52,362 bases of DNA from a virus (lineage: Duplodnaviria; Caudoviricetes): positions 1-52,362 of IMG/VR virus record IMGVR_UViG_3300043673_000008; one strand, 5' to 3'. Positions 1-52,362 of the stretch are shown here, piece after piece (positions within the stretch are counted from its first letter, which is position 1; the number at the start of each line of letters is the position of its first letter). Made by a program: the position numbers and the translations under genes. The notes under the pieces are model-generated. The model saw nothing but the letters and a program-made list of their open reading frames with translations, was not told the origin of the DNA and did not search any database.

Positions 1-150
1 ATTTGACCGGGGCGAATTTGACCGGGGCGAATTTGACCGGGGCGAATTTGACCGGGGCGAATTTGACCGGGGCGAATTTGACCGGGGCGAATTTGTCCGG
101 GGCGAATTTGACCGGGGCGAATTTGACCGGGGCGAATTTGTACAGGGCGA
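1..150 (+). repeat. 15-bp tandem repeat GGGGCGAATTTGACC, about 10 units
   Basis: Directly visible; variant units TCC-GGG and TAC-AGG. Confidence 0.97.
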
Positions 151-485
151 AAAACTCTGAACAAGCGCTTGCTCAAACCATAATTGTCCCTGACGGCGCA
201 TTAGCTGTGTGGAAAAAATGCCAGCGCGGCATTCTTGTGCACTTACTAATCCCTGTTGAGGCGAAGCGTTCTAACGCCCATGGCCGCAAATGCCGCGCCG
301 AATATGTCAAGGTGCTTGAGGTAATCGGAGCTGATGTTGGAGTGTCATCACATGACGGCAAAACGGAATATCGCCAAGGCGAAACTGTTCGTTGCGACAA
401 ATGGAACCCTGACCGCTGGACGGAATGCGGCGGAGGTATTCATTTTTTTCTGACCCGGATCGAAGCGGAGAATTATACATGCTGA
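1..485 (+). CDS. Pentapeptide-repeat protein, 3' part, with DUF5758-like C-terminal domain; continues from 52034 across the contig junction
   Basis: A-N-L-(T/S)-G repeats followed by KCRAEYVKV and ECGGGIHFF motifs typical of phage pentapeptide proteins. Confidence 0.85.
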   Translation, partial: LTGANLTGANLTGANLTGANLTGANLTGANLSGANLTGANLTGANLYRAKNSEQALAQTIIVPDGALAVWKKCQRGILVHLLIPVEAKRSNAHGRKCRAEYVKVLEVIGADVGVSSHDGKTEYRQGETVRCDKWNPDRWTECGGGIHFFLTRIEAENYTC

Positions 486-661
486 TTACCCTGACGCCAT
501 ACGAGCTTGGCACGGTGCGCTATGCACTTGACCAGCACATTGCCACTATGCGCCCCTTGATTGCGGACGGGGAGCGGGCGGGACTATCAGCACTCTTGCC
601 TGAGTTTCGCAGGCTGGTAGCTGATATGGAAACCATACTTGCGAAACTGGATGAGGTTTAG
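479..661 (+). CDS. Hypothetical protein
   Basis: ATG overlaps the upstream gene end, GGAG upstream, tight packing. Confidence 0.6.
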   Translation: MLITLTPYELGTVRYALDQHIATMRPLIADGERAGLSALLPEFRRLVADMETILAKLDEV

Positions 662-663
662 CC

Positions 664-1092
664 ATGCCCGAATTCCTATTGAACCAACCGCCTGAAACCG
701 CGCATCCGTTCTATTCGCTTGATCCGTTTGCGCGCGGCTATATTGAGGCGATGTTTTTCACGAATGGCGATACAGGGGACGAGCGCGAAACTCTATTGAA
801 TGATTGGGGCGTGGAAAAGCTAACACGCGAGGCGGTTGCCAATATCGCCCGCGACTGTGCCGAATTCCAATCCCGCGAAGCTTTTCACCTGTCGGTTGCC
901 TATTCGGAACGTAACTATGAAGCGGCCCAGGCAGGGCGAGACTTTTGGTTTACGCGCCAAGGGCACGGGGTTGGGTTTTGGGATCGAACAGAACTAGACG
1001 CGGACGATTTGGGCAAGCTTTTGACCAATGCCGCGAAGGAATTTTGTGAGGCTTCTGTGGAAGCTTATCGTGGTTGGATTTATTACCGGTAG
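664..1092 (+). CDS. Conserved phage hypothetical protein (GRDFWFTRQGHGVGFWDR motif)
   Basis: 142 aa ORF with GAGG RBS; motif recalled from phage early proteins, function unknown. Confidence 0.75.
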   Translation: MPEFLLNQPPETAHPFYSLDPFARGYIEAMFFTNGDTGDERETLLNDWGVEKLTREAVANIARDCAEFQSREAFHLSVAYSERNYEAAQAGRDFWFTRQGHGVGFWDRTELDADDLGKLLTNAAKEFCEASVEAYRGWIYYR

Positions 1093-1110
1093 TCAGAGAG
1101 GGAAAGTATC

Positions 1111-1548
1111 ATGGGACAATCATATCGCAACTACAACGCGCCCAACCGGGCGCAGAAGGTTTCAATCACTTGGTCGATGGAAACGCCGGAGGACGATTGC
1201 ACGGACGGTCCCGACGAAAGACAGGACGGATTTTGGCCCAGCCATGATCCCAAAGCAGCGGGATATTGCCCGGCTGACAAGTTTGAGGCTTTGCAACGGG
1301 AATGCGAAAACCTGATGAAGGGTTTTGTTCGTGGCGATTGGTCTTATGTCGGCGTGGTAGCGGTTGCGCGCATTTCCATTCCGATAGGGGGCGGATCGTT
1401 CATCACTCATACCCTGCGCAGCCCTGGCCTTTGGGGGATCGAAAGTTATTCGCCCGAATATCACAAAGAGGTTTACGAAGAACAGAAGACGGAGCTTTTG
1501 GAGCAGTTGAAAATACTGGCCGCAGCCATTCAATCGGATGCGCCATGA
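1111..1548 (+). CDS. Hypothetical protein
   Basis: 145 aa ORF, GAGGG RBS. Confidence 0.7.
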   Translation: MGQSYRNYNAPNRAQKVSITWSMETPEDDCTDGPDERQDGFWPSHDPKAAGYCPADKFEALQRECENLMKGFVRGDWSYVGVVAVARISIPIGGGSFITHTLRSPGLWGIESYSPEYHKEVYEEQKTELLEQLKILAAAIQSDAP

Positions 1549-1727
1549 AGCACGAAACGACAGAGGCGCTGCTATCGCGCCTCGCACATGAGCGCGATAT
1601 TCTTTGGGCGTGCATATTGAACGTGGAGATTGGCTATCTCTGGCAACGCCGGTTTTTCTGCGAGCATCAATGGGAAAATATGGGGTTGCACGATGATTGC
1701 AAACTCTGTGGGGAGGGTCGCGCATGA
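1545..1727 (+). CDS. Small hypothetical protein with CxH/CxxC motif
   Basis: ATGA overlap with upstream stop. Confidence 0.5.
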   Translation: MKHETTEALLSRLAHERDILWACILNVEIGYLWQRRFFCEHQWENMGLHDDCKLCGEGRA

Positions 1728-2000
1728 TCGAGGAACGATACTTGAGGTTTCAGCGGACACAACGGCTGCACAGCCCTCCGCTGGGATCGAGTGGCCCGGT
1801 TTTCGGGTTTTGGCAGTGGGTGCAATATCTTTTTAGAAGGAATGAGGAATGATTTTAGTTCTAGTGTTAGCCGCGCTCGCCGAGGTGGCAATTGCGGCGA
1901 TCGAGCTATTCTGCTTTCTGGCCCGGTTTGGCTTCCACCTCGCCCACCTATCGTTTAATCCGCACCTAGTCCAGCGATGGAAGGGCGGGCGCTGATTGCG

Positions 2001-2036
2001 AAAACCGGGCTTCGGGAAACTGAGGTCCGGTTTTTT
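2001..2036 (+). terminator. Rho-independent terminator closing the early region
   Basis: AAAACCGGGCTTCGG-GAAA-CTGAGGTCCGGTTTT stem followed by T run. Confidence 0.8.
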
Positions 2037-2213
2037 CACGCCCTGGGGACGGTCAGGACGGCGATTTGAGGGTTGAGCGGTATGGTAGCATGGGTAGGAA
2101 TTCCTGCCGTCCAGGGCTTCGGGCTAAGGGTGCAGGGGTTGGCAAATCCCTATAGGCGGTATTTTCAAGTCACATCCCTGACGCCGGAATGAACATGATG
2201 GTTCTAGTCGGAG

Positions 2214-3284: not shown

Positions 3285-4868
3285 TTGGCCTATAAAAAAC
3301 CGATCAAGCGCACCGAACGCGAATGGGCGGCCCTCAAGCATTGGCTCGAAAACCCGACCGACGCGATCAAGGACTGGTTCAAGGTCACGCCAGATGACTG
3401 GCAGGGGGACGTGCTTAACGGGCTGTTCAAGCCGACAAGCACGGTGATGGACCGCATCGCGATGAAGGCGGCGCATGGCCCCGGAAAAACGGCGATCGAC
3501 GCTTGGGCCGGGCTTATATTTCTGAACTGCTATGAGAATTGCCGCGTGGTCGCAACCGCGCCGACATTCGCGCAGCTTCACGACGTTCTCTTTCCTGAAT
3601 TCGCAAAGTGGTCGAACAAGCTTCCAGAAAGGATGCAGGATGAATGGGTTATATCTGGCGGGCACATTCGCCATAAGCTCGCCCCATACGATTGGTTCGC
3701 TGTGGCGCGGACAAGCAATCAGCCCGCCAATCTTCAAGGCTTTCACGGCAGCCATCTGCTCATTCTCGCCGACGAAGGCTCCGCGATCCCACCTCCCGTC
3801 TTCGAGGTCATCGAGGGGGCATTGTCGGAAGCGGGCGAAGATGGCAAGGTCGCGAAGCTGCTGGTAGGGGGCAACCCTAACTTCAACAGCGGCGAACTGC
3901 ACGACGCGTTCTATAAGAACCGTGATCTGTATGATCGAATTACGATCACGGGGGATAAGCCCCTGCTCACCAAGCTCGAAGTCGAACAGGGCGGATACCA
4001 CGAAGATCATGGGCGCGTGTACTATAGCCCTAGGGTGAAGAAGAAGTATTGCGACATCATCGCGAAGAAGTATGGCATCGACAGCGCGGTGTACGACGTG
4101 CGCGTGCGGGGCATCTTCCCGCGCATTAGCGACGACGCGATCTTCCCGTTGGAATGGGCGGAACGCGCCGCGCTCAAAACGCCGCCTCCATTCGATAACG
4201 TGGCCGATGGCTTCTCGGTGATCTGCGATCCCAGCCGGGGCGGGGCAGCCGAGACCGCGATCGGGGTCGCTCGCAAGGGATGTCTTGTCGAGATTGAAGG
4301 TCATAAGGGGATGACCAGCGCGCCCCAGGTCAGCAATCAAGTTCACGAAGTCGTGCTGCGCTATAAGGCGATGGGGCTGCACCTCAACGAGATTATTGTT
4401 GATCAGCCCGGTGTCGGCGGCGGTGTCATTGATAACCTCAGACGGGATTTCAACTATCCAGTCCGTGGTTATGACGGCGGCAAGCCGCTCGTAAAAGGCG
4501 TGGACCCGGATGAAGACTGCAAGATGTTCGCCAATCGGCGCGCACGGGATCATTGGGCGCTGAGGCGCAAGCTCGAACAGAACACGCTGCCGATCCCTTA
4601 CGACGAGGTAATGCTCGCGCAGATGGCGAGCATCAAGTACCACTACAACAAGACGGAGAAAATTCAGGTCGAGGGCAAGCAGGACATGAAGGACCGGCTT
4701 GGGCCGGAAGCCTCCCCTGATCGCAGCGACGTGCTGGTGATGGCGAGCGCACCCTATTACAGCGGCAGCGAAGTCACCTCAGTTAACATTACGGAGGAAG
4801 ACATCGTCAGCGGGGATGACCGGCCCACCACGGAATATCGCGAGGCTATGGACATGGGGCTGGTTTGA
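3285..4868 (+). CDS. terL: Terminase large subunit
   Basis: Walker A AAHGPGKT, Walker B LILADEG, nuclease motifs ICDPSRGG and SPDRSD; TTG start. Confidence 0.95.
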   Translation: MAYKKPIKRTEREWAALKHWLENPTDAIKDWFKVTPDDWQGDVLNGLFKPTSTVMDRIAMKAAHGPGKTAIDAWAGLIFLNCYENCRVVATAPTFAQLHDVLFPEFAKWSNKLPERMQDEWVISGGHIRHKLAPYDWFAVARTSNQPANLQGFHGSHLLILADEGSAIPPPVFEVIEGALSEAGEDGKVAKLLVGGNPNFNSGELHDAFYKNRDLYDRITITGDKPLLTKLEVEQGGYHEDHGRVYYSPRVKKKYCDIIAKKYGIDSAVYDVRVRGIFPRISDDAIFPLEWAERAALKTPPPFDNVADGFSVICDPSRGGAAETAIGVARKGCLVEIEGHKGMTSAPQVSNQVHEVVLRYKAMGLHLNEIIVDQPGVGGGVIDNLRRDFNYPVRGYDGGKPLVKGVDPDEDCKMFANRRARDHWALRRKLEQNTLPIPYDEVMLAQMASIKYHYNKTEKIQVEGKQDMKDRLGPEASPDRSDVLVMASAPYYSGSEVTSVNITEEDIVSGDDRPTTEYREAMDMGLV

Positions 4869-5684: not shown

Positions 5685-7178
5685 ATGTCAAAACGGAAAA
5701 CGAACGCGCAAGGTCGTCCGCGCGCCATCGAGGGCGAGCAGCTTGTCGTAGGCAACGACCTGCTGGCAACGATGATCGACCCAAAGCAGGGCGGCGTCTA
5801 TTTTCTCACGATCGACGAGATCGTCGCCCGCAAGGGCTGGGCCACCTACAAGGAAATGCTCCATGACGATCAGGTGAAAGCTTGCTTGGAGTTCAAGAAA
5901 ATCTTGGTTGTGGGCCGCGCCTTCGAGTTGAAGCCCGCCGATGACAGCTCAGCCGCCGCGTTGCAGGCGAAGTTCGTCGAGGAAGTCTTCTCCCGGCTCA
6001 ACATCGAGGAAGTGCTGCACAACGCCCTGACGGCGTTTGAGTTCGGTTACAGCCTCGCGGAGCAGGTTTTCGAGCGCGACATATGGGACGCGAGGAACGA
6101 CGGAGACGGCAAGCAATATGTTTTCCTCAAGAAGCTGCAACACCGCGATCCGCGCGATCTGGTCCTCAAGATGGACTATCACGGAAATTATGTTGGCATG
6201 AAGCAGTGGGGCGTGGCGGGCGTGCCTAAGGGCGTCGTCGAGCTTGCGCCGGAAAAAACCTGGCTTTTCACGCACGACAAGCGTTTCGGCAACCTATATG
6301 GTCAGTCGGACCTGCGCGCCGCCTATCGCTCGTGGTGGGCGAAGAAGTTCGTGATCCAGTTCTGGAACGTCTATCTCGAACGCTTCGGCGCTCCGATGAC
6401 CAAGATGACCTATCCGCTGGGCGCTAGCGACCAGTTGAAGACTAACCTCAAGACGATCCTCTCTAACCTGTCGAGCAAGACCGAAATCCTCGTGCCGGAA
6501 GGCGTCAACGTCAACCTCGTAGAGGCGACGCGCGGCGGCAACGCGGGCTACGAACAGGCTCTCAGCTTCCATAACAACTCAATCGCGCGTGCCATGCTCA
6601 TGGTGGCGCTGCTCGGCGCGGATGGCGACGCCAACCGGCAGACGGCCAGCACCAGCCAGTCGTTCCTGCACGTCCGCATCCTGTTCAAAGTCGCCGACCA
6701 AATTAGCCAGAAGCTCTCCGCGAGCCTCATGGAGCAGGTTATTCGCCCCCTGCTCGACCTGAACTTCGAGACGCCAGCCTATCCCGATTTCATCTGGCAG
6801 GATTACGGCCAGTTCGAGGGTATGGCAGTCGCCGACGAAATCCGTCAGCTTCATGCAGCCGGTATTATTGAAATGGATCAGCGCGACGTGAATTACGTCC
6901 GTTCGATCCTGGGCCTGCCGTTGCGCGACGAACTGGATGACCCGGATGAAGTGATCCGTCCGCAACCGCTGCCGCCGCCCGGCGGCGGGGCAGGTCAGCC
7001 GCCTGCGCCGGAAGACGGCAACACGCGCGCCGACAAGGGCGGCGGTAAAGGCAAGCCCACGGGCAAGCAGCCCGGCACAAAGGGCGGCACGCCTAAGCCC
7101 GCGCAGCGCGAGACGACCAACTCGCAAAAGCATTTCGCGCTCGTTCTGAGGGAAGTTGAAGAAGAAGCGGCGGAGTAA
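5685..7178 (+). CDS. Portal protein (Mu gp29/DUF935-like)
   Basis: Position after TerL; FGYSLAE and FWNVYLERFGAP motifs; Pro/Gly-rich C-terminal tail. Confidence 0.9.
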   Translation: MSKRKTNAQGRPRAIEGEQLVVGNDLLATMIDPKQGGVYFLTIDEIVARKGWATYKEMLHDDQVKACLEFKKILVVGRAFELKPADDSSAAALQAKFVEEVFSRLNIEEVLHNALTAFEFGYSLAEQVFERDIWDARNDGDGKQYVFLKKLQHRDPRDLVLKMDYHGNYVGMKQWGVAGVPKGVVELAPEKTWLFTHDKRFGNLYGQSDLRAAYRSWWAKKFVIQFWNVYLERFGAPMTKMTYPLGASDQLKTNLKTILSNLSSKTEILVPEGVNVNLVEATRGGNAGYEQALSFHNNSIARAMLMVALLGADGDANRQTASTSQSFLHVRILFKVADQISQKLSASLMEQVIRPLLDLNFETPAYPDFIWQDYGQFEGMAVADEIRQLHAAGIIEMDQRDVNYVRSILGLPLRDELDDPDEVIRPQPLPPPGGGAGQPPAPEDGNTRADKGGGKGKPTGKQPGTKGGTPKPAQRETTNSQKHFALVLREVEEEAAE

Positions 7179-9441: not shown

Positions 9442-9765
9442 ATGGCCGGTGCAGGCGAGCGTTTCAGTATCGGTTCGATCTCGGCGGCGACTTCGCTGAT
9501 GATCTGCCAAAACGATTATCTGCCCACGCGGTTCCCGCTGGGCGGCTTGAACCTCTGCTTCAATGCGAACTCCAATTGGCTCGGCACAGTGTCTGTGGAC
9601 AACGGTGTCGGCATCACCGACATCACGTCTCTGCTGACCAACGCCGGTTCTGTCGGCGGGGCCGCTGGGCAAAAGCTTTTCCGTGTCGTGAATTTCTACC
9701 CCTGGAAGGTTTGGCTCAATGTGTCCTCCGTCGCGGGCAATGTAAACTATTCGGTGAGCATGTAA
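9442..9765 (+). CDS. Putative virion structural protein
   Basis: 107 aa, coupled to neighbours in the head module. Confidence 0.6.
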   Translation: MAGAGERFSIGSISAATSLMICQNDYLPTRFPLGGLNLCFNANSNWLGTVSVDNGVGITDITSLLTNAGSVGGAAGQKLFRVVNFYPWKVWLNVSSVAGNVNYSVSM

Positions 9766-10799
9766 TGACCAAGGGTATTGCCACAACCCTAACAGACCGG
9801 GAAATCTTCGCGGTTGGCACTTGGAGCGGCTCGCGCAAGGTCGTCGCGGATACCGCGTTCCTCGACCAGATCGTCGCGAGCTATGAGAACCTGAATTCAA
9901 AGGTCAACGGCTTCGCCATCCCGATCAAGCTGGGCCACAACAAGAAAGTGGGCGAGCCCGCCTACGGATATGCGACCAACGTGCGTCGCGAGGGCAGCAC
10001 CCTGATCGCCGACTTTACCGACATGGCCCCCGAAATCGTGGACGCCATTCAGCAAAAACGCTACAATGCTGTTTCAGTGGAGTTGTGGCCCGAAATCGAA
10101 TACGCGGGCGTCAAATTCTCTCAGGTTCTCAGCGGCGTTGCGCTTCTCGGGGCTGAATGGCCCGCCGTCAAAGGTCTCCAACCACTTTATGCGTCAGAGT
10201 TTACCGGCGACGGTGCGCTCACGCTCTCGAAAGAGGAAGTCGAAATGCCGAATTTCACTCAGGAACAGCACGAAGTCCTTCTGGCCGCAGCCGTTGCCGC
10301 CGCCGTAAGTGACGCGGGGACGAGCTTCACCGCCCAGGTCGCCGAACTGTCGGCCCAGGTTACCGCCGCCGCTGCGCGCGCCGACACCGCCGAAGCCGCT
10401 CTCGCGCTGTTCGCCGAGGAAGCCGAGAAGAAAGACATCGCCGCGATCATCGAAGCCGCCGAGAAGGCTGGCAAGATCGTCCCGGCAAACAAGGCCAGTG
10501 TGGTCGCGTTCGCGGAAACCCTCCGCAAGTCGATTGCGAAGCCGGAAGACCGCAAGGTCGCTATGGCGTCGTTCAAGTCCTTCGTCGAAGCTCTGCCCAA
10601 GAAGGTGGACTTCACCGAGGAAGCCCGTTCCGAGGGCGAGCGCCCCGGTGGCGAGGCAATGACTGCGGGTCAGGAAGTCGTGAACCGCGTCGCCAAGCTT
10701 CGTCAGGCCGACAAGGGTCTATCCTTCAAGGATGCGATGGCGCAGGTCTTCGCCGCCGACGACGATCTCAAAAACCGTTATGCAGAGGAAAATCGCTAA
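9765..10799 (+). CDS. Mu-like prohead protease/scaffold; probable internal scaffold start at 10245
   Basis: EIFAVGTW, PIKLGH, YNAVSVE, VALLGAEWPAVKGL motifs; Ala-rich coiled-coil C-terminal half with GAGGA RBS before ATG 10245. Confidence 0.88.
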   Translation: MTKGIATTLTDREIFAVGTWSGSRKVVADTAFLDQIVASYENLNSKVNGFAIPIKLGHNKKVGEPAYGYATNVRREGSTLIADFTDMAPEIVDAIQQKRYNAVSVELWPEIEYAGVKFSQVLSGVALLGAEWPAVKGLQPLYASEFTGDGALTLSKEEVEMPNFTQEQHEVLLAAAVAAAVSDAGTSFTAQVAELSAQVTAAAARADTAEAALALFAEEAEKKDIAAIIEAAEKAGKIVPANKASVVAFAETLRKSIAKPEDRKVAMASFKSFVEALPKKVDFTEEARSEGERPGGEAMTAGQEVVNRVAKLRQADKGLSFKDAMAQVFAADDDLKNRYAEENR

Positions 10800-12139: not shown

Positions 12140-12183
12140 GATTGATCGCAACGGCCCCCGCTTCCCCCGCCGTGCATCGACAG

Positions 12184-12222
12184 CAACCCGTCCCTCGAAA
12201 GAGTGGACGGGTTGTCCGTTTT
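12184..12222 (+). terminator. Terminator-like hairpin after the capsid gene
   Basis: CAACCCGTCC-CTC-GAAA-GAG-T-GGACGGGTTG followed by TCCGTTTT. Confidence 0.65.
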
Positions 12223-12261
12223 CGTGGTATGGCGACCGCATCAGGTGGGGGAATTCCAACA

Positions 12262-33286: not shown

Positions 33287-33600
33287 GCCCTGACATCACG
33301 CAGGCATTTTGGGAATTCGGAAGCGCGTGCTTCCAGCTTCTCAATGTGCGGGCGATCCGCGCATCAAAGGGTATCAGTGGGGTTCATTGGATACCGACCG
33401 CGTTCTTCGGGGCATGGGGCGTCTATAACCTTTGGTTTTACACGGTATTGAACTTGCCTCTGGCCTATTGGGCTGGGTTGTTCATTACGCTCGTCAATGG
33501 CGTCTGGTTGGGGCACGTCGCTTATTACACACGGGGGAATTGGTATGGAAAATGCAAACTCTGGTTTGACGCTGCTCGCTCGCGAGTTTCGCGGTCTTAA
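33277..33600 (+). CDS. Three-helix membrane protein, PQ-loop/SemiSWEET-like
   Basis: Three TM segments with NVRAIRASKGISGV loop. Confidence 0.5.
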   Translation: MALSPDITQAFWEFGSACFQLLNVRAIRASKGISGVHWIPTAFFGAWGVYNLWFYTVLNLPLAYWAGLFITLVNGVWLGHVAYYTRGNWYGKCKLWFDAARSRVSRS

Positions 33601-33952: not shown

Positions 33953-34028
33953 GAGCGTAATGAACGATCAAGGCTCAACGGTCGCGGCATATCGCCTCGA
34001 CTAGAACAAGCAACGTGGAGAGTGCAAA

Positions 34029-37030: not shown

Positions 37031-37031
37031 A

Positions 37032-38534: not shown

Positions 38535-38546
38535 AGGGGGACTACA

Positions 38547-38918
38547 ATGAGTGCAGTGAAACACGATGCCGGGAAAGCCCCGGTTTATCAGGGTTTTTTG
38601 AACCGTTTCCCGCGCGCCATCATGGCGTGTGCCTGGGTCTCGGAGTACGGGTTTCGGAAATATGGGACATTCGACGGCTGGGAAAAGGTGCCGGATGGCC
38701 TGAACCGGTACACCGACGCCAAGGCTCGCCACATGGTTCTTCAATCCATCGAAGGTTCGTATGACGACGGCGACAGCGGCCTCGCACATGCGGCACAGGA
38801 GTTTTGGGGGGCGGCGGCGCGACTGGAAATGCTTCTGCGCAACGGGGAAATCGAAATGCGCCGGGGCAATGAAATCGTCGATGGCAAGCCGGTTTTTGGA
38901 ACTGCAAAAAAAGTTTGA
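38547..38918 (+). CDS. DUF5664-like dATP/dGTP diphosphohydrolase
   Basis: KHDAGK, YGFRKY...W, RYTDAKARH, DSGLAHAA motifs. Confidence 0.78.
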   Translation: MSAVKHDAGKAPVYQGFLNRFPRAIMACAWVSEYGFRKYGTFDGWEKVPDGLNRYTDAKARHMVLQSIEGSYDDGDSGLAHAAQEFWGAAARLEMLLRNGEIEMRRGNEIVDGKPVFGTAKKV

Positions 38919-38988
38919 GCAATATTGCTCATTCCGCTTGACCACACTCCTGCGAGGTGTAGGAGTGTCGCCGGGCAGAAAAACAAGT

Positions 38989-39147
38989 ATGAGTGGGGCG
39001 ATAGTGGCAAATCCAGACGGTTCATTTCCGTTGTTCGGCAAGCGCATCATGCCGCCGCAGACCTCCATTCATCCGCGCGTTCGCAAAGGGCGCACGGTCT
39101 ATCCAAAGGTCAACACGGCCAAAGCGCCAAAGGGGAAATCCAAATGA
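38989..39147 (+). CDS. Small basic protein
   Basis: 52 aa, overlaps the next start codon. Confidence 0.4.
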   Translation: MSGAIVANPDGSFPLFGKRIMPPQTSIHPRVRKGRTVYPKVNTAKAPKGKSK

Positions 39148-39446
39148 GTACCGACATCTGCGCGGCGCGCAAAGAACTCAAAACAGCCATTTTCCTTCTC
39201 GACAATCGGGGCAATCCGAACGACGTGCGGCGGCGCGTGAAGACCGCGCTCGACCAAATGACCCGCACGGTCAACAAGAAGGCCGTTAAGCTCGGCAACA
39301 AGATGACCTCTGCCATCCGATCGCAGATCATCTTGATCCTCGAAAGCGGCGAAGAATTGGCTGACGTGGAGATCAGTGAGCGGATATTCGGCAATGCAGG
39401 GGGCTCTGGCAGGGTTTCGGAGATCAGAAGCGAGTTGGCAAAGTGA
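39144..39446 (+). CDS. Hypothetical protein, possible C-terminal HTH
   Basis: AGGGG RBS; DVEISERI...GRVSEI motif. Confidence 0.6.
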   Translation: MSTDICAARKELKTAIFLLDNRGNPNDVRRRVKTALDQMTRTVNKKAVKLGNKMTSAIRSQIILILESGEELADVEISERIFGNAGGSGRVSEIRSELAK

Positions 39447-40039
39447 TCCTCTTTCTCGACACCGAGACCACTGGCCTCGTAACTAAGTCCCAGGATTTCA
39501 TGGCCCAGCCCGGCATCTGCCAGATCGGTGCCGTGAAGCTCTTGGAGCCCGGCGATAGGGATCGCGCTGGCGACGTGGTCTCGATGCACCACGAGGTTGA
39601 TAGCTTCTACACTCTGGTCAACCCGGAGTTTGTGAAGTGGGAAGATGGCGCGATGAAGACCCACGGCATGTCGCCTGAGACCGTCAAGGACGCTCCGACT
39701 TTCTTCGAGATCGGGCCTGCCCTCGCACGCTTCGCGATGGGCTGCCGGGCCTGGGCGGGCTACAACATCAAGTTCGACAAGGACGTGCTGTGGTTTCAGC
39801 TTCTCAAGTATGGCCTTGAGCGCAGCTTCCCCTGGCCTCCCGAGGAAATTGAAGTTATGAAGCTCACCAACAAGGTGATGGAGCAGCAGGGCAAGCGCGG
39901 GACGAAGAACCCGAAGCTACAAGAGGCATACCAGCATTTTCTTGGTACGCCTCTTATAGGAGCGCATGACGCGCTGTCAGACATCAGAGCAACAGTAGCG
40001 GTGTGGGGAAAGATCAATGAGATCGCGAACAAGGTGTAG
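39443..40039 (+). CDS. DEDDh 3'-5' exonuclease (Pol III epsilon-like)
   Basis: LDTETTG, YNIKFD, AHDALSD motifs. Confidence 0.92.
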   Translation: MILFLDTETTGLVTKSQDFMAQPGICQIGAVKLLEPGDRDRAGDVVSMHHEVDSFYTLVNPEFVKWEDGAMKTHGMSPETVKDAPTFFEIGPALARFAMGCRAWAGYNIKFDKDVLWFQLLKYGLERSFPWPPEEIEVMKLTNKVMEQQGKRGTKNPKLQEAYQHFLGTPLIGAHDALSDIRATVAVWGKINEIANKV

Positions 40040-40232
40040 TAGCGCAAGCGCCTATCAAGGGTGGGTCGTGCCATACTGCAACGGAGGAAAGCCCTGTGAC
40101 GCCTGCATCGACAAATACCTCACGAAGCAGGCCGAGAACATCATGCACAATCAGTTCGAGAGTGATCCGATGATCGTTAGGGAGATTGGCTCGAAGATGG
40201 TTGAGGCTTTGGGGAAGCGACAGGTGGGGTAA
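40017..40232 (+). CDS. Small Cys-containing protein
   Basis: 71 aa with CxxC motif. Confidence 0.45.
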   Translation: MRSRTRCSSASAYQGWVVPYCNGGKPCDACIDKYLTKQAENIMHNQFESDPMIVREIGSKMVEALGKRQVG

Positions 40233-40331
40233 CTACCGATTTAGAGTGGGGCTCTAGTAGTCCTCCGTGGAGGGGATCGCACGTCCCCACCTGTGCTGTA
40301 CTATTTATCTACTATCTTCTGTGGAATTGCA

Positions 40332-43157
40332 ATGATTATTTTGGACGCCCACACCGACTACAGCTTCATGCGGGGTTTCGGCACGCCGGAACAATGGCTT
40401 AACCGTGCCAAAGCTGTCGGCGTTAAGACTTTGGGCATCGCCGATTATTGTTCCACATGGGGTCACGCCCCATTTCAGAAGGCGTTCAAGGGCAGTGGGA
40501 TCAAATTGCTGTATGGGGTTCAAATTCCTGTGGTCAGCCTGCTGGACAAGGACCCACGACATTCTCTCGTGACGCTTATCGCCAAGGCAAGCACCGATGA
40601 GCTTTATGCCGCGATGACGCAGGCTCAGAGCCAAACGTACTATCGCCCCCGCCTCACTTGGCGTCAGGTCGGCGAACTCAAGGATTGTGTGGTTATTATA
40701 AATGAATTGCTCCGGTCTCAGGTGAGAAGTGTCCCTTCGACTGCTTTCGCCGCCCATTCTCTCGAACATGATTTGAAACTCCCCAGGGTACTGGCCTATG
40801 GGCCATGCTATCCAACGCCAGAAGACCATGTTGGCTTCGAGATTTTTCAAGCGGCGTCAGAAAATCACCGTATCGGCGAGATTTCAAGTGAAAAATTCCA
40901 TCTTCTGACCCAAGGCGAGCAGAATTCCCGCTTCGATGGGTACTGGCCCTCGACCATGGCCGAGATCGACGCGGTCTGCATCGCGGAACCGCCCCACGGC
41001 AAGCTGCTGGACATGGGTGTTCAGGGCAACAAGGCCGCGAAGCTTGGTCGCATGGCGATTGGCGGCGCGCTCAAGCTGGGTCTCGCTGGGATGGACCAAG
41101 GCGATACCTACCCGAGGTTCTTCGATGATAGTTATTATCTGCGCCTCGAAGAAGAACTCGCGATCATCGCGGACAAAAAGTTCGAGGACTACTTCTTCTT
41201 CGTCGCGGAGATCATCGGTTGGGCCAAGGAACGCATGTTCGTTGGACCGGGGCGCGGATCGGCGGGGGGCTCATTGTTGTGCTACCTTTTAGGTATTACG
41301 ATGGTGGACCCCCTGCAGTTCGGAACCCTGTTCGAGCGGTTCATCGACGTGACGCGCTCCGACCTTCCCGACATCGACATCGACTTTCCCGACACCCGCC
41401 GCGAGGAAGTGTTCGACTATATGAAGCAGCGGTGGGGCGCGGCCCACGTCGCCCGCCTGGGTACGCTCTCCCTGCTCGGTGGCAAGTCCGCCATCAACAT
41501 GGTCGCACGGGCGACCGAAGTTCCGTTCGAGGCTTCGCGCGAGATCGGCAAGTTCACCGAAGGCGCTGGTCAGGGCATCACAATCTCACCGCAATGGATA
41601 TTCGATCATGTTCAAGAGGTTCAGCCTATACTTGCTCGCTATCCTTCTCTCCGCCTTGCAAGCGTTGTTGACGGCCATGTCAGTCATCACGGCGTTCATG
41701 CTTCTGGTGTGGTTGTTACTGACGATCCTGTTCGGCGCTATGGGACTGTTGACAAGCTTGGCATCTTATCTATGGACATGCGCACAGCGGAAGATATTGG
41801 TCTGGTCAAGCTGGACGCGCTTGGCCTTAGAACGCTCTCTGTAATCCAAGAGACTTGCGACCTTATCGGGATCGACCCGAAGACACTTTACAATCTCGAT
41901 TGGAATGATAAGACGATCCTCGACGGCGTATTCAATGCAGATCATGTCACGGGTATCTTTCAGTTCGAGGGACACGCGACGCGAAACCTGATGAAACAAG
42001 TTCGCGTCGATCGGTTCGACGACCTGTGTGCGCTCACCAGTTTGAGCCGCCCAGGTCCGCTCGTGGGGGGCGCGGCAGGGGGCTGGGTGAAAGCGCGGAA
42101 CGGCGAGGCCGTGGGGGCCATGCTTCACCCAGCCCTGGAAGAAACCTACGGCGTCATCTGCTATCAAGAACAGTTCATGTGGATCGCGCGGGACGTTGCC
42201 GGGTTCGACATTCCTCAGGTCAACGGGATGCGGCGCGCAGTCTCCAAGAAGGACCCGGAGAAACTTAGGGGTTACCGTGACGCCTTCATCACGGGAAGTA
42301 CCGCCAAGCTCGGCGCTGATCGAGCCGCCGAACTATGGGAAGAAATCTGCGAGTTCGGGTCATACGCCTTCAACAAGGCACACGCCGTCGCCTACTCGAT
42401 GATCAGTTTTATGACCGCGCACCTCAAGCATACTTATCCATTGCAGTTCGCCGTCGCCCAGCTTCGCAACGCGGCAGACGACGATCAAATCAAGAACCTG
42501 TTGCGCGAACTCACCGAGGAAGGATACAAATATGTCCCATTTGACGCAGAACGGTCTGCCGCTTCTTGGAGCATTCGCGACGGGGTACTTTTTGGCGGCT
42601 TTGATAGCATACGCGGCATCGGTACAAAGACCGCTGATCGTCTTATCGTCGCTCGTGATAGTGGCCGTGGTGGTTGGCTTGATAAGCTGACCGACGCGCA
42701 GCGCATCAAGATCGAGAAGGCCGAATTGCGCTGGACTAGCATCAGCTACTTCTCGGAGAAGTACGTCGAGCTTTACAAGAACCCTGATACGTTCCGATCG
42801 GAGAACACCCCGAAGGGGATCAAGCCTCCCGTGTTTCGGATCAAGGATATCCCCGATGCCAAGGGTAACTATGCCTTCATCGGCAGGATCACGAAGCTCA
42901 ATGTCGTTGACGACGACGCCCCTGATCGCGTGGCGAAGCGCGACGGCAAGAAGCGGGGCAAGGATCACACCTTCATCAACGTGAGTGTAGAGGATGACAC
43001 TGGCGAGATCAGCGGCACGATCAACCGCTTCAAATATGATCAGTTCCAGTGGCTGGTCGATCTGGACCGCAATGGCAAAGATTTTTTATTCCGTGGAAAC
43101 ATCATAGAAAGTGGACGACGTTGGTTGTTCTATGATAACGTGATCGAGTTGAAGTAG
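40332..43157 (+). CDS. dnaE: DNA polymerase III alpha subunit (family C)
   Basis: PHP HTDYS; GPGRGSAGGS; FERF; PDIDIDF; KLDALGL; YAFNKAH; HhH and OB-fold EDDTG. Confidence 0.95.
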   Translation: MIILDAHTDYSFMRGFGTPEQWLNRAKAVGVKTLGIADYCSTWGHAPFQKAFKGSGIKLLYGVQIPVVSLLDKDPRHSLVTLIAKASTDELYAAMTQAQSQTYYRPRLTWRQVGELKDCVVIINELLRSQVRSVPSTAFAAHSLEHDLKLPRVLAYGPCYPTPEDHVGFEIFQAASENHRIGEISSEKFHLLTQGEQNSRFDGYWPSTMAEIDAVCIAEPPHGKLLDMGVQGNKAAKLGRMAIGGALKLGLAGMDQGDTYPRFFDDSYYLRLEEELAIIADKKFEDYFFFVAEIIGWAKERMFVGPGRGSAGGSLLCYLLGITMVDPLQFGTLFERFIDVTRSDLPDIDIDFPDTRREEVFDYMKQRWGAAHVARLGTLSLLGGKSAINMVARATEVPFEASREIGKFTEGAGQGITISPQWIFDHVQEVQPILARYPSLRLASVVDGHVSHHGVHASGVVVTDDPVRRYGTVDKLGILSMDMRTAEDIGLVKLDALGLRTLSVIQETCDLIGIDPKTLYNLDWNDKTILDGVFNADHVTGIFQFEGHATRNLMKQVRVDRFDDLCALTSLSRPGPLVGGAAGGWVKARNGEAVGAMLHPALEETYGVICYQEQFMWIARDVAGFDIPQVNGMRRAVSKKDPEKLRGYRDAFITGSTAKLGADRAAELWEEICEFGSYAFNKAHAVAYSMISFMTAHLKHTYPLQFAVAQLRNAADDDQIKNLLRELTEEGYKYVPFDAERSAASWSIRDGVLFGGFDSIRGIGTKTADRLIVARDSGRGGWLDKLTDAQRIKIEKAELRWTSISYFSEKYVELYKNPDTFRSENTPKGIKPPVFRIKDIPDAKGNYAFIGRITKLNVVDDDAPDRVAKRDGKKRGKDHTFINVSVEDDTGEISGTINRFKYDQFQWLVDLDRNGKDFLFRGNIIESGRRWLFYDNVIELK

Positions 43158-44867: not shown

Positions 44868-45035
44868 AATGTACCCGAACGAACTGGAAGACCAGAGCAC
44901 GTCGGCGACACGCTGGACAGCATGATGACGCGCTCACTGACCAAGCGCGGTCTCGATGTCACCAAGGGGTACAACTACCATTACGACGATAAGCTGGACT
45001 GCTGGGTCGTCAGCGGCGATGCACTCCATGAGTGA
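44851..45035 (+). pseudogene. Small gene broken by a 1-bp frameshift (or assembly error)
   Basis: MHKVIKMYPNELED continues as PEHVGDTLDSMM...LHE* if one C is added in GAAGACCAGAG near 44890. Confidence 0.4.
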
Positions 45036-45426
45036 TGATCATATTCAGAACGTGCGACCGATGCTATCGCTGCGCACGCCATACCACCTGATCCCGAAGT
45101 GGTGGCTGGATCATGTCGAGCCCAAGATCAGTAGGGTCAATGGTTCGCGCTGCTGGTACTGGAACGGGATGCTCGACGGCAACGGCGAGGCGTGCTGCAA
45201 GCTAACCAACCCGGAGACAGGGCGTCGTCAGGTCCATCAGTTAAAGCGCATCATCGCGGGCTGGTGGTGGGACCTCAAGAAGCATTATGAAATCCTGCAC
45301 GCCTGCGGCAACCAGAACTGCCTGAACCCGCACCACTGGTATGTGACGGCAACGAACTGGCAGCAGCACGATCGCGCCGCGATCCTCAAGAAACGCAAGA
45401 CCGCAATAGATAGGCACGCCCAATGA
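45028..45426 (+). CDS. HNH/His-Cys box endonuclease-like protein
   Basis: CWYWNG and ILHACGNQNCLNPHH motifs. Confidence 0.75.
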   Translation: MSDDHIQNVRPMLSLRTPYHLIPKWWLDHVEPKISRVNGSRCWYWNGMLDGNGEACCKLTNPETGRRQVHQLKRIIAGWWWDLKKHYEILHACGNQNCLNPHHWYVTATNWQQHDRAAILKKRKTAIDRHAQ

Positions 45427-46145
45427 GCGTTTCTATTCGCAAGAGACTGATGGGCGATTACGCGCTAGATAATTGGCACGAGCATCGCGTCGATCGTGAG
45501 AACTTCATCATCTACGTGGGGAGCGATCCGCGCCAGGAGCAACAGCACGCCGGCGAAGCGGGCGTCGAGCATCATATGGCCGACCGGCTCGAATTGAACC
45601 TCAATATCCTGCACCACCTCGACGACAAGCGCCCAGTCTTGATCAAGATGGGAACGTGTGGCGGGTGTTGGGAGCCCGGTATGCAGATGTTCGGTGCGAT
45701 CCTGACCGCCAGCAACCCGATAACCGTGGTTGGAGTTCGCCACAGCCGCTCTATGAGTTCGATCATCCCGCTCGCAGCCGACCGCTTCCTTATGCGCCCG
45801 CCCACAGAGTTCATGTATCACTATGGAACTTGGGGCTTCGACGGGCTGGCGGGGGAAGAAGCCTGGACTGCGTTCGAGCAGTTGAAAAAATCCAACGACA
45901 TGATGCTGCGTCTCTACGTGGCCCGTCTCAAGGAACAAGGCAAGATGCGGTTCAAGCACCCTGCCTTCATCCGCCACGCGATTGAAGACAACATGCGGCG
46001 CAAAGTCGATTGCTTCCTGTCCACGGATCAAGCGGTGGAGTGGGGCTTCGCCGATGGCGTCGCGCTAGGCGTCGTCGATCGGATTACCAAGAAAAACGTC
46101 AAACGTCGTGCTGCCATGATGGCGGTGCTTAGGAAGGGGAAGTAG
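45423..46145 (+). CDS. ClpP-like serine protease
   Basis: GTCGG, RSMSSII (Ser), FMYH (His), DCFLSTDQAVEWGFADGV (Asp) align with the ClpP pattern. Confidence 0.8.
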   Translation: MSVSIRKRLMGDYALDNWHEHRVDRENFIIYVGSDPRQEQQHAGEAGVEHHMADRLELNLNILHHLDDKRPVLIKMGTCGGCWEPGMQMFGAILTASNPITVVGVRHSRSMSSIIPLAADRFLMRPPTEFMYHYGTWGFDGLAGEEAWTAFEQLKKSNDMMLRLYVARLKEQGKMRFKHPAFIRHAIEDNMRRKVDCFLSTDQAVEWGFADGVALGVVDRITKKNVKRRAAMMAVLRKGK

Positions 46146-47374: not shown

Positions 47375-47600
47375 TCTCGCGTGGACCGAACTGTGGACCG
47401 ACTTCAACCGGCTCACGACCGATACCATCCGCATCCGGCGCGAGCCTCTTGCGGAAGTGATCGCCTGCAACGGCGGGATTATGCCCGATGGCCTGATCGC
47501 GCGCCTTCCGCGCGACGATAGCAAGACCGTTGAAGTCGTTCGTCACGCACTCTTTACGTTTCTCAACCACCACGGCGCTTTGCGCTGTGATCAACTTTAG
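47361..47600 (+). CDS. Hypothetical protein
   Basis: GTG start with GGAG RBS. Confidence 0.45.
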   Translation: MRCSDLAWTELWTDFNRLTTDTIRIRREPLAEVIACNGGIMPDGLIARLPRDDSKTVEVVRHALFTFLNHHGALRCDQL

Positions 47601-47727
47601 GAGCGGATTTTCCAATGATGCCGATCATAGCCGAATGGAAAATTATCGCCTTGTGCCACCGGCATATCAGTGGCGCATCGATGCTGCAAATCCGCCGCGT
47701 CGAAATCGCCTAGGAAGGGAGCGGTCA

Positions 47728-47913
47728 ATGGACGATCTCATCAGGCGACTGAAGGAATACGCCGAACTAGCTGGCAAGGATCAGATGTGCGTCATGGACA
47801 CTGACGATCTGCGCGCAGCCGTTCGCGCTGCCGTCGAAGACCATTCATGGATGTTTCTCACGGGACCGGGTGATGCGCCGGAGAAACAGATTATTGAGCA
47901 TGAGGGGGAATAA
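47728..47913 (+). CDS. Hypothetical protein
   Basis: MDDLIRRL start with GGGAG RBS. Confidence 0.5.
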   Translation: MDDLIRRLKEYAELAGKDQMCVMDTDDLRAAVRAAVEDHSWMFLTGPGDAPEKQIIEHEGE

Positions 47914-47920
47914 CAACACC

Positions 47921-48595
47921 ATGATCCCCAAAGAACCCGCCGCCCTTAATCCGCTTGATGAAGCCATTCGCGTCGGATGCTTTGCCGCTGACGTACATCT
48001 AATATGTTCATGGCCTAAATGCCAATGCACACAGATTCCAAAAGCCATCAAAGCCGCCCTCTCGCACAATCCGGTTGGAGAGGGGGAAATGCGGGAGATT
48101 TTGGCGGATGTTTGCAAGGGATCAGAATACGAAGCTCCCTTGCGCGGTGGAGGAAAACTATTCTTTTGGCAAGAACTCGCTCTCGCCGCCATATCCGAAC
48201 TCCCCCGCCGCGTGGGTGCGACACCGGACAGGGAGAGTGTGATTGAGGAAATTGCCGCCGAGCGGAAGCGCCAGGTCGAGGTTGAGGGCTGGACGCCAGA
48301 ACACGATGCCGAGCATTGGCAGGGTGAGCTTGCGGCTGCGGCTTCTGTCTATGCTCTTGCCGGCTCTATTTCAGACGCGGACATTGAGGGCTCCATCCGT
48401 GGCTGTCACCCGCTTGGTAGGACCGACATCGAAGTTGCAGACGCCATAAAGGCGTTCTGGCCTTGGGATTGGAAATGGTGGAAGCCGAAAGATCGTCGCC
48501 GCAATCTGGTCAAGGCCGGCGCACTGATCGTGGCTGAAATCGAACGTCTCGACCGGCTCACCCCCACCCCACCCGCTGGAAAGGATAAGAGATGA
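47921..48595 (+). CDS. Phage hypothetical protein with ERxRQ...GWTPEHD...WPW domain
   Basis: Widespread phage accessory domain ending LVKAGALIVAEIERLDR. Confidence 0.75.
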   Translation: MIPKEPAALNPLDEAIRVGCFAADVHLICSWPKCQCTQIPKAIKAALSHNPVGEGEMREILADVCKGSEYEAPLRGGGKLFFWQELALAAISELPRRVGATPDRESVIEEIAAERKRQVEVEGWTPEHDAEHWQGELAAAASVYALAGSISDADIEGSIRGCHPLGRTDIEVADAIKAFWPWDWKWWKPKDRRRNLVKAGALIVAEIERLDRLTPTPPAGKDKR

Positions 48596-50547: not shown

Positions 50548-50617
50548 AGCTCACCACATTCGTTTGCCTATTGATCGTGGCAGCGTGGGTTCTGGTCGCC
50601 GTAACGGTGGCCGGGCC

Positions 50618-50911
50618 ATGATCGGGAGGATCACGTTGTTGCTCGGCATTGCTCTACCTATGACATATTGGGCTGGGCATTCTGTTGGAGCAAATTCAGC
50701 TTATGATGTTGGGTTTGATCGCGGATGGTACAGTGGAATAGACCGGGGGCACGATGAACAATCGCGCGCCGACATTGATCAGATCGAGAGTGGGAGCGCC
50801 CGCACCGAGACTGTGATCCGCAAGCGCGGCATATGCTTTTATGCTCGAAATCTCTGCGATACGGAGGGTGACCATCCACATGCTCGGCGGGTTTCCAATG
50901 TCCAGCGCTGA
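50618..50911 (+). CDS. Small membrane-anchored protein
   Basis: N-terminal TM segment followed by G-Y/F-xxG repeats. Confidence 0.5.
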   Translation: MIGRITLLLGIALPMTYWAGHSVGANSAYDVGFDRGWYSGIDRGHDEQSRADIDQIESGSARTETVIRKRGICFYARNLCDTEGDHPHARRVSNVQR

Positions 50912-51119
50912 TGGTGATGTTCCCGCTCATGTGACCGAAGAACTAGGAAGCTTTGGGCTGCGTGTGATCGTTTAAGACCGGCGCTGGACACTATTGCGTC
51001 GAGTTAGCCTCGCCAGACGGCATCGGAACGTGTAAATGAAGTTGGCCGGGGAGCAAGAGCGATCCTCGCGCTATGGGGAACAATCGCTCGCAACTACGTC
51101 ATTACCTGAGGGGACTACG

Positions 51120-51293
51120 ATGTCGAACGGCAAGGAAAATACAGTCACAGTTCATAGCGTTAAGGCTGCGCTCGAAGCAGAAGTGAAGCGCAACGTCGTC
51201 GGTGGCGACATGAGAGCAAAGCTGTCCGATCGGCGCGCATGTCAGGCCCAAGCAGTCTATCTGCGCAAATTGATCGACAAGATTTTTTCCTAA
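51120..51293 (+). CDS. Hypothetical protein
   Basis: AGGGGACTAC RBS motif shared with the genes at 38547 and 43409. Confidence 0.55.
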   Translation: MSNGKENTVTVHSVKAALEAEVKRNVVGGDMRAKLSDRRACQAQAVYLRKLIDKIFS

Positions 51294-51298
51294 TCGCG

Positions 51299-51365
51299 TG
51301 TGTTCTAGGGGTCCAAATTAGCCTTTTGCCTCGCCGCCCCATGTGTTCTGGAAACGCAAATTAGC
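51299..51365 (+). promoter_or_regulatory. Tandem TGTGTTCT-N7-CAAATTAGC motifs, copies 2 and 3
   Basis: Direct repeat in the intergenic region before the early genes. Confidence 0.5.
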
Positions 51366-51657
51366 GTCCAGGGTCGATGGTGCGCGGGGCTATCGGTATG
51401 GTTAATTCGTCTTCATCGTCAATTGGTTAGCGCTTGTTAACCTTAATCCACAGTAAGGTTAATGTACATTAGCTTTGGCACGCGGTTTGCTCCCTGCAAG
51501 TGGTGCGCCGGTTCATGGTCAATTGCTAAGATTTAATCCGTATACGTCCCTTGACTTATGTTCCGCACGAGTAAGGAAAAATTTACCAGCCGCGCAACAT
51601 AGCTTTGCATCGCGGCGGATTGGTCCCTATATTCGACTATCAACAGTGGGGACGAAA

Positions 51658-51873
51658 ATGATCCGAGATATTAAAACAGAAGTAGCCAGCCTGCCGCCAT
51701 CGGGCCGCGCGTTGTTTCTCGCGTTTGGTTTCGCGCGCCGCGTTGGCCAGCCTGTCTATATGTACCGCACGCCCAAGGGCTTTTGTTTCGACGTGGCCTC
51801 GCCGGTTATGGGAGAACGCTGGGTGGCACAGCCTGATGGAAAGTTTTTGCATATTTCCGGGCCGGTCACATAA
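51658..51873 (+). CDS. Hypothetical early protein
   Basis: GGGG RBS, 71 aa. Confidence 0.5.
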   Translation: MIRDIKTEVASLPPSGRALFLAFGFARRVGQPVYMYRTPKGFCFDVASPVMGERWVAQPDGKFLHISGPVT

Positions 51874-51935
51874 GCGGTAACGCTTTGTTAAGACCTGCCG
51901 CGCTATCATCATCCTGTCAACAGAGAGGCCATTAC

Positions 51936-52034
51936 ATGAAACCGCTAAATCATACCGCCGAATATACCAAGCTCATTCTTCAACAGCTTTATGCCGCCAA
52001 GTTGGCTCGCAAAATCAAGCAGGGGGCTATTTAA
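51936..52034 (+). CDS. Small hypothetical protein
   Basis: GAGG RBS, 32 aa, TAATG coupling to the next gene. Confidence 0.45.
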
Positions 52035-52362
52035 TGAATATTATGGTGACAATCCCTTTCTTATCTTGGGCTCACAGAGCCCCACTGTCATTTGAAATTG
52101 ACGCTTCTATAGAAGCCCAGTTTCATTTGCGCGCGGCCCTTGTTCAGGCAATAAAGTCCGGGGCGAATTTGACCGTGGCGTATTTGTCCGGGGCGAATTT
52201 GTACAGGGCGAATTTGTCCGGGGCGAATTTGTCCGGGGCGAATTTGACCGGGGCGAATTTGACCGGGGCGAATTTGACCGGGGCGAATTTGACCGGGGCG
52301 AATTTGACCGGGGCGAATTTGACCGGGGCGAATTTGACCGGGGCGAAAAACTCTGAACAAGC
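52034..52362 (+). CDS. Pentapeptide-repeat protein, 5' part (joins 1-485)
   Basis: MNIMVTIPF...[18 protein letters not shown]; open to the end of the contig. Confidence 0.85.
52157..52346 (+). repeat. 15-bp tandem repeat, about 12 units
   Basis: Same unit as 1-150. Confidence 0.97.

Follow-up and report, generated by a model that had tools for sequence, protein, structure and literature searches.

Restriction-site avoidance is a known strategy of bacteriophages, and depletion of the word GANTC has already been reported in phages of Alphaproteobacteria. Site avoidance in general is reported to be much stronger in non-temperate double-stranded DNA phages and to concern orthodox Type II sites almost exclusively, with complete or near-complete elimination of Type II palindromes in about one-tenth of viral genomes (Rusinov et al. 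2018, PMC6286503). GANTC, the target of the methylase CcrM, is depleted in about half of 33 pelagiphage genomes, where the trait partitions the phage tree, and the authors of that study propose evasion of a restriction-type defense linked to the CcrM mark (PMC9516812). GANTC methyltransferases are encoded by phages ΦLM21, Φ2LM21, Φ3LM21 and vB_OspM_OC and are reported to be common in alphaproteobacterial phages (PMC5537653, PMC7139368). Alphaproteobacterial chromosomes contain about 3.4-fold less GANTC than expected (log2 of the observed-to-expected ratio (O/E) −1.78 ± 0.59, O/E ≈ 0.29; PMC8919816; PMC3973325) and keep intergenic copies for regulation (PMC3973325; PMC8919816). Here we examine the loss of GANTC and other words from a tailed-phage record of 52,362 nucleotides (Duplodnaviria; Caudoviricetes; IMG/VR record IMGVR_UViG_3300043673_000008, positions 1 to 52,362; hereafter the window, or G000). 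An original prediction, made by reading the letters of this record, had described near-total avoidance of GANTC as an escape from a system that reads the methylation state of this word, with CcrM and GcrA singled out. As argued below, the phage probably follows the known strategy and does not represent a new kind of system.

An exact search of all 52,362 bases returned one GANTC, counting either strand. This site is a GATTC at position 48034, precisely where the original prediction had noticed its only copy. Base composition leads one to expect 196 copies, which agrees with the earlier estimate of roughly 200 for uniform composition. The Markov and codon-shuffled nulls that had been proposed as a check also predict far more than one copy. 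Order-1 and order-2 Markov simulations (n = 30 each) contain 265 ± 16 and 236 ± 18 sites, and 100 dinucleotide-preserving shuffles contain 260.9 ± 16.3, with at least one site in all 100. Synonymous-codon shuffling of the 68 called open reading frames (ORFs), which preserves every protein and the overall codon usage, produced 111.8 ± 8.3 sites when codons were pooled over ORFs (200 shuffles, minimum 89) and 98.9 ± 8.5 when they were exchanged within each gene (200 shuffles, minimum 75). The O/E of G000 is about 0.005, and the shortfall over these nulls is 100- to 260-fold. Neither half of the degenerate word has survived beyond the one site (GAWTC 1 versus 84 expected; GASTC 0 versus 112), and the 3,286 bases of non-coding DNA contain no copy versus about 12 expected. 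Control words of like composition occur at ordinary frequencies (observed/expected: TCNGA 137/157, GTNAC 132/151, CANTG 216/201, GANTG 366/339). The ratio is thus neither near 1 nor at the level of about 0.29 published for alphaproteobacterial chromosomes. The same word is biased in the same direction in these chromosomes, but in G000 the effect is far deeper and includes the non-coding DNA.

The loss of GANTC has left a clear footprint in the coding sequence. Serine residues that follow aspartate or glutamate are encoded by AGC (40) or AGT (17) and never by TCN, despite the fact that TCN accounts for 634 of the 1058 serine codons in G000. The rule that the original prediction had recognized by eye in more than 50 dipeptides holds for all 57. 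The other two frames are equally affected: in 51 ORFs of at least 100 amino acids, GANTC occurs 0 times in frame GAN TCN (33.9 expected by codon shuffling), 0 times in frame xGA NTC (30.8) and once in frame xxG ANT C (40.8). Arginine and glycine codons that precede an NTC codon are never AGA, CGA or GGA (0/281), although these three make up 209 of all 2187 arginine and glycine codons. The proteins themselves have also changed. Asp/Glu-Ser dipeptides occur at 0.52 of expectation in the window and at 0.47–0.54 across four purged records (G000 and its relatives G003, G004 and G010, see below), at 0.61–0.73 in relatives with intermediate GANTC content and at 0.87–1.02 in the unpurged relatives G001 and G002, while the reverse dipeptides, Ser-Asp/Glu, range from 0.75 to 1.21 in the same records. 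A synonymous change suffices to abolish any GANTC, and the codon pairs indicate that the word was removed almost wholly by way of synonymous codon choice and partly by loss of Asp/Glu-Ser dipeptides. Because these dipeptides are depleted in purged records, selection against GANTC must be old and strong.

The original prediction overlooked that many other palindromes are equally purged. Nineteen of the 64 hexamer palindromes have no copy in G000. Among the 43 that are expected at least 8 times by codon shuffling, 23 are found at no more than 0.1 times this expectation: GCCGGC, GGCGCC, CGGCCG, CCGCGG, GACGTC, GTCGAC, CCCGGG, ATCGAT, CAGCTG, TTCGAA, GAGCTC, TCATGA, TCCGGA, AGGCCT, CTCGAG, GGGCCC, CTGCAG, GGTACC, CGTACG, CACGTG, AACGTT, AGATCT and GGATCC. 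Several degenerate sites share this fate (observed/expected: RGATCY 0/43.9, GTMKAC 1/37.7, GWGCWC 2/43.1, TCCNGGA 0/22.2). Altogether 53 hexamers are absent on both strands. Of these, 28 contain GANTC, and the other 25 comprise the 19 palindromes, AGATCC/GGATCT (RGATCY), GTAGAC/GTCTAC (GTMKAC) and CTCTTC/GAAGAG. We take these words to be known Type II and Type IIS specificities (BstYI/XhoII, AccI and EarI, among others).

Palindromes are affected far more often than other words: among GANTC-free hexamers that are expected at least 16 times on the two strands, 22 of 56 palindromes but only 32 of 3560 non-palindromes are reduced to 0.1 times expectation or less. This is not a general dislike of palindromes, because several are normal or enriched, including CGATCG (49 versus 29 expected), TGATCA (31 versus 20) and GAATTC (23 versus 22); AAGCTT, TCGCGA and GCGCGC are also normal or high. 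The tetramer GTAC is mildly low in G000 (85 versus 116 by codon shuffling). Counting GANTC, the number of purged Type II-like targets in G000 is roughly 25–30. GANTC, the HinfI-type site, constitutes the largest single case, because this word with four specified bases is expected about 200 times. Like phages described in PMC6286503, G000 has eliminated orthodox Type II palindromic sites completely or nearly so, but the number of sites lost at once is large, as it includes GANTC and several degenerate sites besides 23 of the 43 hexamer palindromes that could be tested.

Two other features of the word content are worth recording. The pair CTCTTC/GAAGAG is non-palindromic, has 0 copies versus about 18–24 expected on two strands, and is the only absent hexamer pair outside palindromic or degenerate-palindromic sites; its absence may mark a Type IIS enzyme. 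In addition, GATC is enriched in spite of the absence of RGATCY (433 copies versus 315 ± 14 by codon shuffling and 196 by composition), and in related records it reaches 2–3 times the expectation by composition (also at loci L001 and L002, and in G002).

With the terminase large subunit (TerL) as a marker, a search of the protein collection returned about 520 relatives, of which many are encoded on contigs of 46–56 kb. We retrieved the loci of about two dozen related contigs from IMG/VR, and whole or large records for eleven, and calculated the O/E of GANTC in these relatives from composition; Markov simulations agree with the resulting values. Over the 12 records (window plus eleven), GANTC is near zero in five (O/E 0–0.02: G000, 0.005; G003, 3/168; G004, 1/171; G010, 0/73; G016, 0/56), intermediate in five (O/E 0.17–0.56: G009, G008, G007, G005 and G006) and normal in two (O/E about 1: G001, 181/162; G002, 184/190). 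Near-zero, intermediate and normal members of this clade share 45–76% identity in TerL. In the TerL tree, the starred four-row clade of the window consists of three purged rows (the window, L008 and L004) and the unpurged L009, which corresponds to G001. Similarly, L016 and L021 (GANTC 0/69 and 0/70) branch near L014, which corresponds to G002 (83/73). Other words behave in the same way. Ten records, the window among them, reach 27 kb or more, and each of these has its own set of 10–23 purged hexamers; by composition, GTAC is near absent in G005 (1/213; L044–L046) and G008 (0/103; L064–L065), and CGATCG, which is enriched in the window, is absent in G002, G004 and G006. GANTC is gained and lost lineage by lineage just like GTAC and CGATCG, as one would expect if restriction systems are patchy and mobile.

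This on/off pattern resembles the one described for pelagiphages (PMC9516812). Those phages are mostly podoviruses of SAR11, while G000 is a 52-kb siphophage with 57% GC, and G000 adds a purge of about 25 hexamers, a phenomenon of which we saw no mention in the parts of PMC9516812 that we consulted. Apart from this study we found no report of GANTC depletion in phages, in a literature search that did not cover the supplementary tables of PMC9516812, PMC8919816 and PMC6286503. Relatives of G000 among described phages are distant. A blastn search with 6.3 kb from G000 against 50,697 phage records gave no match, the matches to named phages by tblastn are remote (21–35% identity, for Pol III alpha, portal, TerL, tail protein, hub protein and primase), and TerL searches of 185,579 species genomes, with the single protein and with a 26-row alignment, returned no related prophage.

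We then asked how GANTC content relates to the presence of methylases. In G000, families PF01555, PF00145, PF02086, PF05869 and PF02384 gave 0 matches at E ≤ 1; a 1009-residue ORF does contain an S-adenosylmethionine (SAM)-methyltransferase domain, which sits between glycosyltransferase domains. Over 17 records, the window and 16 relatives, PF01555 matched only in G002. This phage, the clearest unpurged member of the clade (loci of note: L031 1438–2622 and G002:C1:38580-38984), is temperate, with an integrase, and has a different replication module, without the helicase, primase and DnaE set that the others have. A small winged-helix-like ORF precedes the gene of its methylase, a 394-residue beta-class N6_N4 methyltransferase (L031 1438–2622). 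Among proteins of solved structure CcrM is its best relative (E 8.5e-22); among phage proteins the best match, with 50% identity, is the methylase of Caulobacter phage DMCA, which is encoded two genes downstream of a GcrA gene. Phages with GANTC methylases would be the active counterpart of the passive G000 at the same site; G002, whose methylase is a candidate for GANTC specificity, keeps GANTC at about the expected number.

As a yardstick we used eight cultured phages, which were picked from hit lists and do not constitute a survey (25-kb stretches, 50 kb for DMCA). Roseobacter phage RDJL6 (OK283306.1) and Rhodobacter phage RcRudolph (OP009285.1) contain 2/89 and 4/79 GANTC sites (observed/expected) and no PF01555 or PF05869 methylase in their whole records. 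Higher counts were found for Caulobacter phage DMCA (34/162; methylase carrier according to a tblastn match and the record annotation, without PF01555 search), Rhodobacter phage RcCronus (51/80; methylase carrier; KR935217.1:1-25000, L052), Dinoroseobacter phage R5C (53/86), Brevundimonas phage Polewnik (49/90), Pseudomonas phage KT1 (61/94) and Acinetobacter phage Effie (102/87). RDJL6 and RcRudolph resemble G000 in that they purge GANTC, lack a PF01555 methylase and have tail genes like those of gene transfer agents (GTA). They are unrelated to G000 except that the tail hub proteins match remotely, at about 25% identity, and we found no paper in the literature that states their GANTC scarcity. 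PF01555 is absent from all five purged phages that were searched over a whole record of 46 kb or more (G000, G003, G004, RDJL6 and RcRudolph), and all three methylase carriers are unpurged (GANTC O/E: G002, 0.97; RcCronus, 0.64; DMCA, 0.21). A cultured example of hexamer purging is RcCronus: its 25-kb stretch lacks 19 of the 32 hexamer palindromes with an expectation of at least 4.

The depletion, its specificity for palindromic words of the restriction type, its mosaic distribution over lineages and the absence of the five methylase families from G000 are direct observations. In our opinion they are probably explained by passive anti-restriction: a methylase-less and probably virulent siphophage evades restriction by eliminating sites, with GANTC as the largest case among many Type II targets. 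The DNA of this phage would be unmodified and would survive host restriction since the recognition words are missing. These words would have been removed mainly by synonymous changes under selection. The agent that selects against GANTC would be a nuclease in the host population that cuts unmethylated GANTC, because only against such an enzyme are carrying a methylase and carrying no sites equivalent. The hosts may be Alphaproteobacteria, which we propose with less conviction; CcrM already methylates GANTC in these bacteria, and such a nuclease would therefore be cheap to carry. From the original interpretation we retain strong selection to escape a defense that acts on GANTC, but not the emphasis on CcrM and GcrA.

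Several observations weigh against this explanation. TerL searches of species genomes and searches of the Atlas gave no host, and no GANTC-cutting nuclease was identified, so the agent is inferred. The pelagiphage study found no restriction–modification system in the SAR11 hosts of GANTC-depleted pelagiphages (PMC9516812). With a CheckV completeness rating of 61%, G000 may hold a methylase outside the sequenced part. The methylase of G002 scores 79 bits, far below the cut-off of 830 for the CcrM equivalog, so that its GANTC specificity is putative. Four of nine methylase-less phages are unpurged (GANTC O/E: G001, 1.1; G005, 0.47; R5C, 0.62; Polewnik, 0.54), and to methylate or to purge is therefore not a clean rule; among these four, G001 is a 42.6-kb fragment in which no methylase was seen but which may lack the relevant end. 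Finally, RDJL6 and RcRudolph purge GANTC while few of their hexamer palindromes are absent (3/32 and 1/32). Since they purge few hexamers, pressure on GANTC can act without a general purge, and there is thus room for a cause linked to CcrM.

In Alphaproteobacteria with CcrM, this essential orphan methylase might also serve as the modification half of a class-wide restriction barrier. With the chromosome already protected by CcrM, a solitary nuclease that cuts unmethylated GANTC would need no methylase partner and could spread on its own. We regard this extension as tentative and, on balance, unlikely. If it were true, GANTC would be the most widely restricted word in Alphaproteobacteria, and phages would split into carriers of GANTC methylases, often temperate like G002, and total erasers of GANTC, in which even half of the Asp/Glu-Ser dipeptides are gone. 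The clade described here, with near-zero, intermediate and normal members, would then be a natural system to date and test this arms race.

The idea closest to the original prediction is that GANTC was lost since methylated or hemimethylated sites are read by GcrA or other methylation-sensitive factors, or tie the phage to the cell cycle. This interference with the CcrM/GcrA circuit accounts for the choice of GANTC, the CcrM target that is also about 3-fold under-represented in alphaproteobacterial chromosomes (PMC3973325, PMC8919816), and it fits RDJL6 and RcRudolph, which purge GANTC almost alone. The GcrA gene beside the methylase of phage DMCA indicates that phages do engage this circuit. 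We nevertheless consider the idea improbable. In G000, GANTC shares its fate with some 25 further sites that are unrelated to CcrM. The on/off distribution over 12 records, with relatives of normal GANTC density inside a purged subclade, is unlike what a methylase universal to a host class would impose. A phage that brings a methylase and one that has no sites respond to a nuclease in equivalent ways, but to a reader of methylation in opposite ways. The window contains no CcrM-like methylase, GcrA (PF07750) had no match in the window or in the 16 related records, and the depletion exceeds that published for the host chromosomes about 60-fold.

A defense that depends on methylation is even less probable. 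Phage DNA marked by CcrM in one host would be cut in the next by a nuclease specific for N6-methyladenine in GANTC, and a phage without sites would carry no mark. Such a nuclease would also select for total site loss, but it found no direct support in our analysis. To phages with N6_N4 methylases that keep normal or host-like GANTC numbers (G002, 184/190; RcCronus, 51/80) their own enzyme would be self-destructive, GANTC methylases are reported to be common in phages of Alphaproteobacteria (PMC7139368, PMC5537653), and a CcrM-bearing host could not carry this nuclease itself.

We give slightly less credit still to the possibility that the phage destroys host DNA with a GANTC nuclease of its own and lacks the site so as to spare itself. 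An HNH-like ORF and several ORFs without known function could be cited in favor, but the HNH-like ORF is common to the unpurged G002 and G005, and self-sparing leaves unexplained about 25 further purged sites that differ between relatives. Moreover, none of 254 BLASTP clusters occurs in at least two of three purged genomes (G000, G003 and G004) and is absent from G001, G002 and G005; at BLASTP sensitivity, this comparison of three versus three genomes hence revealed no gene, be it a phage nuclease or a specific anti-defense factor, that is restricted to purged relatives. That the depletion merely follows from base composition, codon usage or mutation bias, or from faulty assembly, has next to no probability: the only point of that kind is a low count of CTAG (36 versus 52.5), a word that is generally scarce in bacteria, whereas 0 of 200 synonymous shuffles fell below 75 GANTC sites, control words of the same composition are normal, relatives with similar GC and codon usage have normal counts (181 in G001, 184 in G002), and the effect extends to codon pairs and dipeptides, which are beyond the reach of an assembly artefact.

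If passive anti-restriction by site elimination is the correct explanation, G000 shows how far it can go, with one word reduced to a single copy, about two dozen hexamers erased and a footprint left in the proteins. The independent switching of sites within this clade is useful for reading host restriction repertoires from phage sequences, for host prediction and for estimating purging rates. It also bears on the question that pelagiphages raise, as to what selects against GANTC where the hosts show no obvious GANTC restriction system.

The estimation of purging rates can build on the surviving sites, since the only stretch with clustered survivors looks recently acquired. Two overlapping ORFs near the end of the record (Table 1) contain the only ATCGAT (47677), the only GANTC and two of the three GCCGGC (48359 and 48515) within positions 47677–48515. 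Neither ORF has a homologue in five whole related records, and the GC content at third codon positions is 0.56–0.58 as compared to 0.7–0.8 in core genes. The second ORF has a C-terminal domain of about 110 residues that also forms the ends of many PHROG families without assigned function. Judging from these sequence features, we infer that this stretch is a putative recent import in which the sites have not yet been cleaned.

The only hint on host class within the window is the RcGTA-like tail module. It has remote matches (22–30% identity) in phages of Dinoroseobacter, Rhodobacter, Roseobacter and Brevundimonas, and it also matches phages of Pseudomonas, Acinetobacter and Stenotrophomonas. 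Together with the purge in cultured Roseobacter and Rhodobacter phages, this tail makes an alphaproteobacterial host a plausible guess by analogy. Atlas searches provided taxonomy no finer than "Viruses" and "Pseudomonadota". A cyanophage origin, suggested by the Pam3_Gp34 domain and the excess of CGATCG and GATC, was dropped after GCGATCGC was found only 8 times and no other pointer emerged.

Table 1. Features of the window (G000) and their coordinates.
Feature	Coordinates	Strand	Remarks
Whole IMG/VR record G000 (= window)	1–52362		GANTC and about two dozen other Type II-like palindromes cleared
Terminase large subunit (TerL)	3285–4868	+	Marker for gathering and treeing related phages
Portal	5685–7178		
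Head (maturation) protease	9576–10799		
1009-residue ORF	12142–15171		Mid-structural module; GT4-type and GT2-type glycosyltransferase domains, SAM-methyltransferase domain
Tail tube	16699–17799		
Tape measure	18481–21054		
RcGTA-like distal tail module	21054–26768	+	DUF2460; Phage_phiJL001_Gp84_N and Phage_BR0599; NlpC/P60; Phage-tail_3 and Rcc01698_C
Lysozyme	31199–31699		
Replication module	31832–43157	+	DnaB-like helicase, Pam3_Gp34-like protein, primase, HD protein, UvrD-like helicase, MazZ-like dGTP_diPhyd_N protein, RNase T-like exonuclease, DnaE-type Pol III alpha
HD-domain ORF (YfbR-like/HD_3)	36434–37030		Within replication module
dGTP_diPhyd_N ORF (MazZ-like dATP/dGTP diphosphohydrolase)	38547–38918		Within replication module
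DnaE-type Pol III alpha	40293–43157		
HNH-like ORF	44956–45426		
Clp-protease-like ORF	45423–46145		PF00574, E 2.8e-10; late in genome, separate from head protease
Two ORFs (47530–47913 and 47870–48595)	47530–48595	+	Hold 4 of 21 surviving sites of nearly purged words
Sole GANTC (GATTC)	48034–48038	+	Frame xxG ANT C of ORF 47870–48595

The record is of the linear class, and its gene set is that of a tailed phage of the siphophage type (Table 1). We found no tRNA genes and, in a search that did not include serine recombinases and repressors, no tyrosine integrase (PF00589); the phage is probably virulent. The HD-domain and MazZ-like ORFs of the replication module are without homologue in five whole relatives, and the pair recalls what we take to be the gene set of 2-aminoadenine (Z) genomes. 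We rejected a Z genome for G000, in which no homologue of PurZ (adenylosuccinate synthetase, PF00709) was found and purging extends equally to sites that contain A and sites that do not. The Clp-protease-like ORF also has no homologue in the five whole relatives. The 1009-residue glycosyltransferase ORF, on the other hand, is kept in five of six whole records, and from its domain composition the product may glycosylate virion proteins.

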